Assembly: GCA_951406725.2 (NCBI GenBank)
Contig: OX597825.1
Location: 88,226,001 to 88,290,000 of the forward strand
Length of the DNA stretch: 64,000 nucleotides
Reading direction: 5' to 3'
Source of the DNA: Octopus vulgaris
Taxonomy: Eukaryota
Shown here: positions 4,226-63,882 of the stretch, one piece after another
Layout of the letters: each line of letters starts with the position of its first letter
Position numbering within the stretch: position 1 is the first letter of the stretch
Notes under the pieces: generated by a model
The model's input: the letters and a program-made list of their open reading frames with translations, nothing else
Told to the model about the DNA's origin: nothing
The model's database searches: none
Position numbers and translations under genes: made by a program

Positions 4226-4675
4226 GAAAAAACAAGTCAAAAATAGAAAATGCTAAAATAATTTTATAGTGAACATTTCAGTACCGGTTTCGGTCATTTT
4301 GAGACCTTTTCAACTGTAACGATTAAATAATTAAATTTAGAAAAATTAGAAGAAAAGTTTTTTTAAAAGAATATTTCTATAGTAGTGTTCAGATTTAAGT
4401 GGCATTCTGCCTTTCTCTGACTCCCTTGTTTGCACTTGTGTGTCGGAGGTCGTTGTGAGTTCTTGGAAGGGTAGTAGAGGAAGAAGGCTGGTGGGGAAAG
4501 GGGGATGGGAGAATCTGGGAGTGCCCTGATGGTCGTATTTTGAATGGTCAGTGGCGGCTGGCAGTCTCAGTTCAATTCAGGAGAATATTTATATTGACAG
4601 GCTTGTTTATAGAATTAGCGAAGGTGTTATACTAAAAAACATTAGTGACAAAGTTAAGGGTTAGGGGGTGGAGAA
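4226..4675 (-). mobile_element. Probable PLE 3' terminus (pseudo-LTR remnant) between microsatellites
   Basis: Contains the hammerhead at 4277-4319; minus-strand translation NILLN*TETASRH resembles the LLN..E...CRH end of PLE endonucleases; ends at (TA)n. Confidence 0.5.
4277..4319 (-). ncRNA. Type-I minimal hammerhead ribozyme candidate with U3-A8 core
   Basis: Minus strand: cag-TTGAAAA-ggtc(tcaaaat)gacc-GAAA-ccgg-TA-ctg; stems I and II pair; palindromic stem III. Confidence 0.7.
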
Positions 4676-4677
4676 GT

Positions 4678-4853
4678 AGAAGAAGAAGAAGAAGAAGAAG
4701 AAGGAGAAGATGACGATGATGGTGGTGGTGGTGATGATTATGACGACGATGATGATGATAATGATGATGATGAAGAAGAAGGAGGAGAAGGAGAAGATGG
4801 TGGTGATGATGGTGGTGATGATGATGACGACGATGATGATGATAATGATGATG
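4678..4853. repeat. (GAA)/(GAT)/(GGT) compound repeat, duplicated as a higher-order unit of about 85 bp
   Basis: gaagaaggag..gatg..atgacgacgatgatgatgataatgatgatg occurs twice. Confidence 0.85.
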
Positions 4854-4894
4854 TTTTTTCATATATATCAACTCGTGTGTTCCTTTTCACCCTT

Positions 4895-5995
4895 ATACAT
4901 ATACATATATATATATACATATATATATATACATATATATATATATATATATATATATATATATATATATATATATATATATATATATACATATATATAT
5001 ATATATATATATATATACATATATATATATATATATATATATATACATATATATGTATATATATACATATATATATATATACATATATATAAACATATAT
5101 ATATATACATATATATATATATATATATATATATATATATACATATATATACATATATATATATATGTATATATATACATATATATACACATATATATAT
5201 ATATGTATATATATATACATATATATACATATATATATACATATATGTATATATATATACATATATATACATATATATATACATATATGTATATATATAC
5301 ATATATATACATATATATATACATATATGTATATATATACATATATATATATATATGCATATATATACATATATATATGTATATATATACATATATATAC
5401 ATTTATATATATGTGTATATATACATATATATACATTTATATATATGTATATATATACATATATATACATATATATATATATATATATATATATATACAT
5501 ATATATATATATATATATACATATATATACATATATATATATATATATATATATATATATATATATATATATATATATATATATATATATATATATATAT
5601 ATATATATATATATATATATATATATATATATATATATATATATATATATATATATATATATATATATATATATATATATATATATATATATATATATAT
5701 ATATATATATATATATATATATATATATATATATATATATATATATATATATATATATAATATATATATATATATATATATATATATATATATATATATA
5801 TATATATATATATATATATATATATATATATATATATATATATATATATATATATATATATATATATATGTATACATATATACATATATATACATATATA
5901 TTTGTATATATATGTATATATATATACATATATATACATATATATTTATATATATATATATGTATATATATATACACACACACACATATATATAT
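4895..5995. repeat. ~1.1-kb (TA)n microsatellite with C/G-interrupted flanks and a long pure core
   Basis: Direct reading; source of the YIYI ORFs. Confidence 0.98.
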
Positions 5996-6439
5996 GTGTG
6001 TGTGTATTCATGCCGCACACACATGTATATAGGTACATGTGTACATATGTATATACACATACATACATATATATAGCGGTCAAGTCATTTAATATGTATA
6101 TATATACGTATGTATGTATGTATGTATAATGAGTGACTTGACAGATTGGTAGATGGCAGGATCAGTAGAGACTCTCATAAATAACTTGCGATGCGCTTTC
6201 TCGTACTCTTACGCTCACCGCCCACTTTAAGTTTATCGTACCAAGTTCTATGACTGACAAACTAAATCTGTGACATCTTGCTATCAACATTGGCAGTGTC
6301 CATTCACGCAAACTGTATGTGTTTATGTCTCAACTAGAGATCATTTAACTTAGACATGTTTATAATTATACAGAAAATATTTTATTTAACACTTCGGTGT
6401 TTTTACTAGAATACACTAGACTCAATATATTCGTGGTTA

Positions 6440-6606
6440 CGGGCGAAATGCTTAGCGATATTTCGTCTGCCGCTACGTTCTGAGTTCAAATTCCGTCGAG
6501 GTCGACTTTGCCTTTTCTCCTTTCGTGGTCGATAAATTACTGGTGCCGATCTAATCGATTGGCCCTTTCCTCAAACATTGCGGGCCTTGTGCCTTGAGTA
6601 GAAACG
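6440..6606 (+). mobile_element. 5'-truncated tRNA-derived SINE with 16-bp TSD
   Basis: B-box-like gagttcaaattcc; body gtcgactttgcc..ggtcgataaa shared with other copies in the window; aatatattcgtggtta at 6424-6439 and 6607-6622. Confidence 0.85.
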
Positions 6607-60569: not shown

Positions 60570-62133
60570 AGATATATATATAGTTAGATAGTTAGATAGA
60601 TTGATGGGTAGATAGATAGATAGAGAGACAGACAGACAGATTCTTTGGATTTTCATCGATTGACTATGCTACTACCTAAGTCGTGTGGGCTATTGGAAAT
60701 ATAAACTCAGAACGCAAAGAATTGGAATAAATACCACAAAACATCAGGTCTGACTTTTAAGCCGCTTCATGATATACTGTCAATCAATCACCTGTTATTA
60801 ATGATACGTTCCTGAGTCCGGGATGAAATGGCTTCTTTGAACTTGAAGATTTGGAAGGAATACAGTGAGGCATTCTATCCGACGCTTTCAAGATTCTAAC
60901 AATTCGTTGCAAATAACCACATATATTATGAGTATAAACGTATACAGGTGTGTGTCTGTGTGTAGAAGGGTGCCTATGTGTGTGCACATAGGGGGTGTCA
61001 GTGTGTGTGTACATATTGGGTGCCAGTGTGTGTTTGTGTGTGTGCATGTGCGTATGTGCACGCTTTGCGTATGTGCGCATAAAGAATAAGATAGGAAGGA
61101 TAAAAGTTTAAAATGCTGTATCATTTTAACGTTTTAATGGAGAAAGAACGGCTTTAACGTTTTGGAGTGTAGTCATTCACCAAACGAACAAAAATGGACA
61201 GCGCATGAAAAGGGCAAAAGGGTGAGAAAGACACTCCAGTAAAGTAAAAGTTTGAAACCGGTGGTATTCTGTGATATGGGAAAGAGAGAAAAAACGAAGC
61301 ACGTGTAGTGGTGGTATACATACATAACGTATCATTATATATGTATATATATGTATATATTACAATATATCTGTGTTTGAAGACGAGATGACGAAAATGG
61401 CGTATGCTTGTGTGTCACCGTGTCATACGTGCATCGATTTTCAAGTATAGAAGTAGGTTGAAGAGTATTGATCTGTGTGTGATTGTTGCGTGGGTAGCAT
61501 GAGCAGGTATGTGATGAACTGCGGGTGCAGGCGTGTGAGAATATATTTATTGATGAAGTGCATGGAATAGTAAGAGCAATTTCATATATATATATATATA
61601 TATATATATATATATATACACGTATAACCCTTTGGTTTGTATCAGTGCTTGCGCAAGTGCGTGTGAACAGTTACGGAGTCAGAACATTTGCTGCGTTGGT
61701 CACAGCTGTCGTCTATACATTTTTCAGTCTGTGATATTTAAAATAGTTTTCATGAAGCCACAGTTGGTGACATTTGCGTCTGTATCTTCTATATTGCTTT
61801 TTTTCTTTTTGCCTGATATCTATTTTCGTCGACATATGCAAATTTTCCATAAACCAGAAATAAATTAATCGGAAAAACGGAGAGTTTGAAGTATAATTGA
61901 TACATACAATGAGAATTATTTTTCTAGATTCGATGTCTGATATCAGAATTAAATTCTATCTGACAAGATGTATCATATTTTGTCGAGGGTTGGCAGATTT
62001 CTGGGCAACAATGAATCATGTGTAAGTAAAATGTTTACAATAGAATCATATATATATATATAAATACGGTGTACGTTTAAACACATAACAGGCATCCATC
62101 ATAAGACTCCTTCGTCGGAATTCTAAACAAAAC

Positions 62134-62169
62134 TGTCCGACGAACGGCAACGTGCAACTCTGAGTAACA
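62134..62169 (+). ncRNA. Hammerhead-like motif (U4C core; GAAA reads GCAA)
   Basis: tgt-CCGACGA-acg(gcaa)cgt-GCAA-ctctgag-TA-aca; about 100 bp upstream of a (TA)n array. Confidence 0.5.
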
Positions 62170-63199
62170 TCTTCTGTGATAAATTTGCTCTATTATTATT
62201 ATTACTCTACCTCTGGTATTCGAGTACTATTCTTTCTACCTTGCTTCGCATTAATGAGCTTACTCTGGTATATATATATATATATATATATATATATATA
62301 TATATATATATATATATATATATATATGTGTGTGTGTGTGTGTGTGTGTATGTATGCATGTATGTAAATGTATATATACACACACTCACATACACGCACA
62401 CACACATAAATATATATATATATATATGTATGTATGTATTTGTATGAAAGGTACAGTTATTGAAGAAGAGGGGCTCAGGTGCCTGTAAAACTACTAATTG
62501 GCCCTTATGGGAGTGATAACAAATATTTCAAGATTTACTAATTGCATAAAGATAATCTAACACCAGTGGAACACCAGCAGGACATTCAACTTTTAAAGTG
62601 GAACGGAATTGGTGAGAACCGTTAGTTGGAAATGCTTTGATTCTACAACGTATATGTTTTTTAAGAATGTTTTATAAATTCGGGAAAAATCTGTGGGAAT
62701 CACACTTATATAATATAGCTCACGGTCACACACGTCCGCGTACATATACATATATACATGTGTGTGTGTATGTTTCTGTGTGTGTGTGTGTGTGTGTGTG
62801 TCAGTGCGCGTGCATAAATGATTATTTACATCTACTTGTGATATATATGTTATTATGCATATGTGTGTATCTGAATGTATGAACTGGTGTATGCATCAGA
62901 CAGGTATATTTAACGTCTATTCTGCTGGATGAATGCAAAAGTGTTGAAATTGTGCTTAACAGGTTATTCAACACTTGTCTGTCACTGGATATATATATAT
63001 GTATGCATACATACATACATATATATACATATATATATATATATATATATATATATATATATATATATATATATATGTATGCATGTGTGTGTGTGTGTGT
63101 GTATTAGAAGAAATGAGGTACTCAGAAAATCGGATGGTTTATATTAACAGATATTTATTTGTATATTACATTTTTTATACATCATATAACTTAGATCAT

Positions 63200-63240
63200 G
63201 TATTAGCGCTTTCTTCCATTCTAGTGGGATTTTCAAATCA
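63200..63240 (-). ncRNA. Hammerhead-like motif with U3-A8 core, partly decayed
   Basis: Minus strand: at-TTGAAAA-tccca(ctagaa)tggaa-GAAA-gcgc-TA-at; weak stem I and one stem II mismatch. Confidence 0.45.
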
Positions 63241-63846
63241 AACTAAGTTCCTGTGTAAACAGTTTTGACCATTTTATAGTGGTATTGAGTCTGTAGTGGT
63301 GGGGAGGAATATAAGATAGTACAAGAGGGTGATGGATGGGGAGAAAGTGAGAGAGAGAGCATGTGTGTGTATTTGTGTGCGTGCGTGTGCGTGCGTGTGT
63401 GTGTGTGCTTTTGTATGTGAAATGATGCTAAAGAAAAAGTGGGGAAGGGAGAGGAAAGAAGAAAATAATTTTATTTGCTCTGCTGGACAGCATACTTACT
63501 CCAAGGGGGCGTCTAAGAACTTGTGGAAGAAGAATTTCAGTTTTGACCATTTCATAGTGTTATTGAGTGTGTGTGGGCGGGGAGGTAGACCATAAATTAT
63601 ATTTCTTTTATCATTGTGTGTGTGTGTGTTTAATGAGGGATGATCAAATGGTGTTTTGGTTTTAGAGAGAAAGAATTCTTTTTATTATTGTTATGTGGAG
63701 GTGTGTGTGTGCATGCGTGTGGGTGTCTGTGAGTTTGGAGAAGGGAAGAAAGGAGAAGAGGAAAAAAAGTAAGGAGAAATAATTGTGTTGATATTTATAC
63801 CATTTTTTCCCCCTGTCCTCCCGTCTCGGGATCTTTCTTTCTCCTA

Positions 63847-63882
63847 TGTTTCCGACGAAGAGCTCCCTCGAAACGTCATACA
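63847..63882 (+). ncRNA. Minimal hammerhead-like motif (U4C core)
   Basis: tgttt-CCGACGA-a-gag(ctcc)ctc-GAAA-cg-TC-ataca; about 95 bp upstream of the terminal (TA)n. Confidence 0.58.

Follow-up and report, generated by a model that had tools for sequence, protein, structure and literature searches.

Hammerhead motifs with variant cores in a 64-kb stretch of Octopus vulgaris DNA, two of them in the arms of a Penelope-like element

Hammerhead motifs in the window

The window analyzed here is the whole stretch of 64,000 nucleotides (nt) at positions 88,226,001 to 88,290,000 of Octopus vulgaris contig OX597825.1 (assembly GCA_951406725.2, forward strand), an AT-rich animal DNA that is rich in (TA)n, (CA)n, and (TAA)n arrays. 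It contains six motifs, named M1–M6 in window order, with the type I topology of the hammerhead ribozyme (stem I, 7-nt core, stem II, GAAA, and UH), which is weak for M4–M6 (Table 1). An original prediction had placed six such motifs in this DNA and described them as lacking the canonical CUGANGA core. All six were recovered at the same coordinates and on the same strands, as the top six matches of a scored scan, and their cores read UUGAAAA (M1 and M5) or start with CCG (M2, M3, M4, and M6). In hammerhead numbering, the CCG-starting cores carry C instead of U at position 4 (U4C, hereafter C4 as opposed to U4). M2 and M3 lie in the inverted pseudo-long terminal repeat (pseudo-LTR) arms of one 5′-truncated Penelope-like element (PLE), in whose relatives C4 is the majority letter, accompanied by a canonical U4 minority.

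Table 1. Hammerhead motifs of the window and parts of the element carrying M2 and M3 (bp, base pairs).
Feature	Position	Strand	Description
M1	4277..4319	-	Type I minimal hammerhead; UUGAAAA core (U3-A8) at 4313-4307; 29.7 bits; stem II of 4 bp including G10.1-C11.1; stem III ACCGGU, palindromic; cut predicted after A17 at 4282
(TA)n array	19151..19407		Left boundary of the element
Left pseudo-LTR arm	19563..19971	-	Inverted 5′-truncated copy; 96% identical to right arm
M2	19599..19684	-	In left pseudo-LTR arm (inverted); core CCGAAGU at 19678-19672; 6-bp stem I; 7-bp stem II with long imperfect hairpin; stem III ACA-UG-UGU; C17 at 19605
Open frame	19972..20815	+	C-terminal part of PLE protein: post-reverse transcriptase region, Asn-rich linker, GIY-YIG endonuclease, stop
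Right pseudo-LTR arm	20730..21131	+	End of the endonuclease coding sequence, 3′ untranslated part, M3
M3	21010..21095	+	Right-arm version of the M2 hammerhead; core CCGGAGA at 21016-21022; C17 at 21089
(TA)8	21139..21154		Right boundary of the element
M4	62134..62169	+	Hydra-type; core CCGACGA at 62137-62143; GCAA replaces GAAA; stem III ACUC-N-GAGU; A17 at 62166
M5	63200..63240	-	Decayed or chance U3-A8 hammerhead; UUGAAAA core at 63236-63230; 20.1 bits, the weakest; stem III AGCGCU; A17 at 63204; 2-bp stem I; one stem II mismatch
M6	63847..63882	+	Minimal hammerhead of the layout of Cervera and de la Pena (2014); core CCGACGA at 63852-63858; C17 at 63877; extra base after A9; G10.1-C11.1; ACGU stem III

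The Penelope-like element carrying M2 and M3

The two arms differ by nine substitutions and one 7-nt gap, and an inverted 5′-truncated copy at the 5′ end is described as the usual structure of PLEs. The frame between them is open from 19961, its initial 11 bases being part of the inverted arm, while the reverse transcriptase (RT) has been lost from the window element through 5′ truncation. Its endonuclease (EN) shows the arrangement CxxC-E-N-CxH, lacks CCHH, and is followed by the stop and the pseudo-LTR, on which grounds Naiad identity was rejected; the marks of Naiads are an N-terminal EN and CCHH, and the EN here is C-terminal.

A phmmer search gave 2,010 relatives at E ≤ 0.001. The only named relatives of the protein come from Octopus sinensis, with 40–56% identity, which points to a probable octopod host. 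The longest among the 150 matches listed possess RWK (4 of the 14 longest), DKT, YRDD, a CxCX5C linker, and CxxC-E-N-CxH, which are marks of the Hydra clade of PLEs. The Hydra-clade sequence mark at frame residues 244 and 272 is present in the window frame and in 121 and 116 of the 150 matches listed, whereas C..C within the GIY-YIG core was found neither in the query nor in any of them. The element also resembles the Hydra clade in its C-terminal GIY-YIG domain without CCHH, with CxxC and CxH round E and N, in its insertion in (TA)n, in its inverted truncated copy, and in a hammerhead near the 3′ end, as far as the clade is described in Craig et al. (2021; PMC8557442); (TA)n arrays bound it on both sides, and contigs of one sequencing run (X12, below) have loose ends into TA. 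The CxCX5C linker, present in 93 of the 150 matches listed, is missing from the window frame, which has an Asn-rich tract in its place, and from the close relatives P0001, P0003, P0005, and P0009, P0008 retaining part of it. Because of this absence, the window protein is called Hydra-like and is not filed as a member of the clade. Pfam at threshold gave nothing for the EN frame or for 11 relatives, and a word-index search for longer relatives found none.

Two side observations concern its ends. The left arm extends approximately 155 nt beyond the right arm's end in (TA)n (19407–19562, minus strand); this piece occurs in relatives at similar depth, some of which end in TA at approximately 19553, giving two 3′ ends, and is longer than the 30–40-bp tail described for PLEs. 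After the (TA)8, positions 21155–21293 (plus strand) hold an inverted 20-nt copy of the arm end, followed by sequence weakly resembling the C-terminus of a Hydra-type endonuclease (profile E 0.24). This sequence perhaps stems from another PLE family, and no credible hammerhead lies downstream.

Core letters in relatives of the M2/M3 family

Part of 19420–21140 is contained in 20 of 24 listed runs with six organism labels (≤0.58 of its words), and four runs (X12, X4, X5, and X23) were aligned to 19410–20000, with variant rows called at a 6% threshold. X12, X4, and X5 consist of contigs from three organism labels and three studies, with 195, 2,403, and 1,605 aligned records, respectively. Core position 4 is U in 34.5%, 18.4%, and 32.9% of their depth and otherwise C, a C4 share of 65–82%. 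As C4 is the majority in three runs, the C4 of M2 and M3 is not copy decay. In contrast, position 9 is A in 99.8–100% of depth, so the U9 of M2 is private, and there is no variant row, i.e., less than 6%, at C3, G5, A6, G8, GAAA, C17, stem I, or stem III, so the G6 and U2.1 of M3, with no row at the matching M2 positions, are private as well. Variation is seen at position 7 (A to G in 10–26% of depth), in one proximal stem II pair (G.U to G-C in 8–55%), and in two distal pairs of the long hairpin, which are broken in 5–26%. Past the junction at 19971, depth drops approximately tenfold to thirtyfold, a pattern that a predominance of short 3′ pieces among the copies would produce.

The decay of CpG sites was considered as the source of U4 and rejected, since 12 of the 15 CpG sites of the arm, and G5 of the very CpG concerned, show no variant row; U4 therefore marks a subfamily. 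A general T-to-C or A-to-G editing bias was rejected too, not being seen in the kinds of change.

On these letters, U4C is taken to be the state of the M2/M3 family beside a canonical U4 subfamily, a reading that is very probable for M2 and M3 and has a moderate edge when extended to M4 and M6, while A9U in M2 and A6G in M3 are read as private decay of the copies. The general proposal that PLE families of this genome have variant consensus cores has thus been addressed in one of five families and is half right there: the majority of the family is variant, and the decay foreseen as its counterpart is copy-specific only for A9U and A6G, but canonical U4 copies make up 18–35% of depth. The further claim that searches for CUGANGA would miss the family does not stand, given those copies. 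All the same, the canonical core that marks the Hydra clade is here the minority form, and either CUGANGA or the U3-A8 core is found in M1, M5, and the U4 share of this family and is lacking in M2, M3, M4, and M6.

Relaxed scan of the window and (TA)n surroundings

The scan used a scored descriptor consisting of stem I, the 7-nt core, stem II, GAAA, a palindromic stem III, and UH, and block-wise dinucleotide shuffles served as the null. The first scoring model favored C4 and was composed with the six motifs already in view; the scan was therefore repeated with C4 penalized like any other mismatch. Under the first model, M1–M6 were ranks 1–6 of 84 matches, and the window held six matches of at least 20 bits versus a mean of 0.37 and a maximum of 4 in 886 shuffles. 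Under the second, they were still ranks 1–6 with 20.1–29.7 bits (next-best match 17.1), none of 446 shuffles reached six, and the reversed window peaked at 16.6 bits. The hit rate of the real sequence is thus far above that of shuffled sequence, a comparison on which the original prediction had staked its claim.

When the core was left free, M1, M2, and M3 were ranks 1, 2, and 4 of 194, whereas M4, M5, and M6 were only ranks 21, 61, and 62, so that the last three rest on core and frame jointly; chance matches that score as high as M5 are expected at a rate of about 0.37 per window. C4 is found in 41 of 1,345 chance matches of at least 16 bits versus three of the five independent loci here. The window contains 16 CUGANGA 7-mers, none with a credible hammerhead frame, and the best CUGA-starting match of the C4-penalized scan (14.4 bits) lies inside the null distribution. 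A very loose descriptor gave 55 matches and missed M5, and is uninformative without a score. In an Rfam cmscan, no hammerhead family was among the best 150 of 264 rows, the matches among these being microsatellite hits to microRNA models. The core-free rank 3 (16016–15987, minus strand) has GAAA, a Hydra-like stem III (ACUUGAGU), UU, and a 6-bp stem I without a hammerhead core, and is perhaps a more decayed hammerhead motif.

Arrays of (TA)6 or longer start 62, 195, 43, 99, 124, and 94 nt downstream of M1–M6, respectively, in line, roughly, with the 50–120 bp first proposed, and lie on the 3′ side of all six motifs (five independent loci), against a background of 12% of positions with an array within 200 nt. 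M1 belongs to a 670-bp piece flanked by two (TA)n arrays, 62 nt short of its 3′ end, and a 200-bp piece flanked by (TA)n at 62049–62062 and 62269–62327 carries M4. Among the motif loci, self-BLAST finds only the M2 and M3 arms alike, as anticipated for motifs that are not copies of one element. A Hydra-type profile and tblastn showed no coding remnant beside M1, M4, M5, or M6, other PLE clades not being searched. The presence of a (TA)n-targeting PLE is accordingly borne out for the M2/M3 element, the other four motifs being without such a Hydra-type remnant; for these, an origin as 3′ remains of different PLE families is likely. The retrozyme families proposed alongside found no counterpart, as neither the repeat listing nor self-BLAST of the window revealed a 170–400-nt tandem unit bearing a hammerhead.

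Hydra-type motifs in metagenome contigs

Metagenome contigs (3 of 64 parts) were scanned for the ACUC-N-GAGU stem III, C and U both being allowed at core position 4, giving 122 matches at 119 loci, seven of which match Hydra-type proteins. Stems I and II both reach at least 3 bp in 28 matches, of which 26 are U4 and two are C4, while the unstructured ones comprise 51 U4 and 43 C4 (Fisher p 1.1e-4, many rows being copies of a few families). The two structured C4 matches (L119 and L092), in GC-richer DNA and with long loops, look like chance. The layout closest to that of M4 is locus L002, which lies beside a Hydra-type endonuclease and has the core CUGACGA. Of the six window motifs, only M4 was matched by a model built from 19 U4 metagenome motifs with covarying stems I and II (25.5 bits, E 5.6e-5); this match is only partly independent, since the training set was collected with the stem III pattern of M4 and of File S2 of Craig et al. 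(2021). An exact search for the 5′ half of M2/M3 in the metagenome contigs gave none. Three loci (L036, L064, and L070) have two canonical Hydra-type hammerheads in inverted orientation approximately 10–20 nt apart, a far more compact version of the layout seen in M2 and M3.

Predicted folding

In silico, M2 as found folds into a rival hairpin owing to its private U9; with A9 restored, stems I and II have a probability of 0.88–0.99, C4 and U4 alike. Stems I and II are predicted for M1 (in the minimum free energy structure) and M3 and mostly not for M4–M6, the frame of M5 not being predicted to fold. Stem III is closed in no monomer, the probability of the 15.1-16.1 pair being 0.00–0.02 in five motifs and 0.27 in M4, and a stem III self-duplex is predicted in 6/6, with −6 to −8.3 kcal/mol for M1–M5. 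An open stem III in the monomer with self-pairing in trans corresponds to the published dimer layout of PLE hammerheads.

Relation to known hammerheads

The motifs resemble the PLE hammerheads described by Cervera and de la Pena (2014; PMC4209133) in their type I layout, short palindromic stem III, occurrence mostly as single copies in truncated PLEs, and opposite-strand pairs, and four of the six share G10.1-C11.1 with that set. The U3-A8 core is published there with about 1,300 matches in Schistosoma mansoni, whose family 4 has the UUGAAAA core of M1 and M5. Unlike in that set, the core halves of M2 and M3 are 55 nt apart (the long stem II hairpin), and most window motifs have no extra base after A9. 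C4 is found in none of the 56 metazoan PLE hammerhead representatives of its Fig. S3, and PLE hammerheads are reported to cut at low rates in vitro.

Similarly, all 25 Hydra families in File S2 of Craig et al. (2021; PMC8557442) have CUGA and none has C4, including Hydra-1_Obim, the octopus family described there with a canonical CUGAAGA. The window hammerhead stems differ from those of Hydra-1_Obim in a by-eye comparison with File S2 and the text of Fig. S7, and the stem III forms shared with the clade are ACA-NN-UGU or ACUC-N-GAGU, the latter, that of M4, occurring in several File S2 families.

The same change from CUGA to CCGA is known in viroids and viroid-like RNAs (PLMVd and CtaHVd-LR1). 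U4C is reported to have left a viroid infectious, yet it “considerably decreases activity in vitro” (Perreault, 2011), and another paper reports that it did not affect self-cleavage (PMC9608096). There, U4C is a rare variant of a tertiary-stabilized hammerhead in an RNA replicon; in the M2/M3 family, it is the majority state of a multi-copy retrotransposon with a dimer-dependent frame. The suggestion that such variant cores would escape searches is overstated, UUGAAAA being a published PLE core and a CYGANGA descriptor being already in print (PMC13481778). The literature covered, which did not extend to Lunse et al. (2017), the likeliest place, gave no description of a PLE family with C4. A C4 majority in a PLE family appears to be new, while U3-A8 in PLEs and U4C in viroids are already known; the motifs are not a new kind of system and probably represent a known ribozyme in variant forms that cut weakly.

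Proposed mechanism and alternative explanations

The reading preferred here, with a probability of roughly 0.55, is that the six motifs are type I hammerheads of PLEs and that their source elements cut tandem transcripts slowly as dimers; for M1–M4 and M6, descent from PLE hammerheads is held with high confidence. Two pseudo-LTR copies in one tandem transcript would pair through the self-complementary stem III, and the paired source-element hammerheads would cut after C17, probably more slowly with C4 and probably aided by the element's own protein; an anole PLE hammerhead is reported to have cut only when protein was added. Reverse transcription would then insert mostly truncated 3′ pieces into (TA)n. 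That the C4 form still cleaves usefully has slightly better than even odds. The window copies themselves are likely dead, to judge from M2 and M3 lying on opposite strands, each with a private core change.

Several points weigh against this reading. Cleavage of the motifs is a prediction from sequence, and M4 and M6 are not predicted to fold into an active frame as found. M1, M4, M5, and M6 have no Hydra-type coding remnant alongside, the family letters are those of M2/M3, and M5 could be a chance match. The C4 shares are depth-weighted over contigs, are no copy count, and lean toward the reference letter, and C4 would fall to about half if U4 accounted for all missing depth at position 4. No run is known to come from the window's own organism, and at most 0.58 of the words are present. 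X23, raw reads of approximately 1.9 billion letters, gave only two reads on 19410–20000 and is uninformative; it shares its species label with the best-matching runs, and other runs cover the stretch deeply, so label or family presence differs. The hammerhead is not measurably less variable than the arm (approximately 6 of 86 nt versus 27 of 560 nt variable, too few to test), and selection is therefore suggested by where the changes fall and not demonstrated. Furthermore, variants with a changed CUGA turn are reported to have had low activity in a mutational scan, and hammerhead cleavage is reported to be dispensable for insertion of the anole PLE in vitro, so that C4 may be unselected.

In a possible but less favored explanation, these are PLE hammerheads and C4 is a crippling or neutral mutation of one successful source copy, cleavage being dispensable, the family having spread despite an impaired ribozyme, and a canonical sister subfamily persisting. 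In the anole PLE, catalytic mutants are reported to have left insertion in vitro unaffected, and the cut site to have yielded no RNA ends, and Naiads are reported to have spread without canonical hammerheads; U4 coexists at 18–35% in the M2/M3 family, and 26 of the 28 structured Hydra-type metagenome motifs are U4. However, one founder event leaves unexplained why C4 occurs in three unrelated layouts (M2/M3, M4, and M6), and the other core letters and the stems are unchanged in the M2/M3 family.

About equally tentative is the narrower reading that C4 is true only of the M2/M3 family, M4 and M6 being decayed canonical copies and M5 a chance match. Besides C4, M4 shows another core change (A13C) and a mismatch in stem I, M6 has a U.U in stem I, the closest layout to M4 reads CUGACGA, and M5 scores at a level of which 0.37 chance matches are expected. 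It would nevertheless require the same change to occur twice at the same one of approximately 11 conserved positions, for which 1 in 100 is a rough estimate, and no canonical copy is found among the five loci.

A more far-reaching proposal, and a somewhat more doubtful one, is that several unrelated PLE families of an octopus-like lineage have converged on CCGA as a deliberately slowed hammerhead, whose cut would need the element's protein or a contact of the long stem II hairpin, the best-studied of these families targeting (TA)n without the zinc-finger linker that is proposed to guide such targeting.

Membership of the motifs in non-LTR retrozymes is improbable. Retrozymes are short, non-coding tandem repeats from which circular RNAs arise; in animals they likewise carry type I hammerheads in repeats (Cervera et al., 2020; PMC7229834), and animal retrozymes are proposed to derive from PLE pseudo-LTRs. 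M1, M4, M5, and M6 do lack an adjoining Hydra-type coding remnant, but no short tandem unit of 170–400 nt contains a motif, the motifs are single and follow the minimal layout of PLE hammerheads in place of the canonical type I one, and M2 and M3 adjoin a coding remnant. Chance resemblance of AT-rich sequence to a loose pattern, for which the 55 matches of the very loose descriptor and the low frame-only ranks of M4–M6 speak, is very unlikely to explain the motif set and was rejected for it, since the shuffles never reach the observed count and context (pseudo-LTR arm position, 3′ (TA)n, and the model match of M4) argues against it, leaving chance as a candidate for M5 alone.

Other features of the window

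An intact frame of 1,235 amino acids lies at 37680–41387 (minus strand), between (TAT)n arrays at 37388–37502 and 41695–41848, and has an RT (Pfam RVT_1, E 1e-29) and a C-terminal restriction-like endonuclease motif; it resembles what we take to be a young Dong/R4-type non-LTR element. A broken relative of it apparently lies at approximately 35279–37389 (minus strand). A dispersed repeat resembling a short interspersed element has six copies that are 67–87% alike (6440–6615, 9732–9925, 12761–12917, 27262–27490, 54889–55011, and 60393–60568). Older repeats include an inverted pair (34358–34501 and 35026–35169, 77%) and a direct pair (9091–9356 and 9420–9678, 73%), and a 61-nt direct repeat occurs at 59433 and 61262 (95%).

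Significance for Penelope-like elements

Hammerheads are nearly universal in PLEs, cut poorly, and were dispensable for insertion in vitro. Animal-genome censuses that use CUGANGA and short stem II limits undercount families such as M2/M3. The loss of the linker in a (TA)n-bounded family bears on the proposal that CxCX5C guides microsatellite targeting (Craig et al., 2021; PMC8557442). A family with both U4 and C4 subfamilies allows the cleavage rate to be compared directly with copy success, and if families of this lineage have indeed converged on CCGA, the two subfamilies would be a natural paired experiment on the purpose of the PLE hammerhead.

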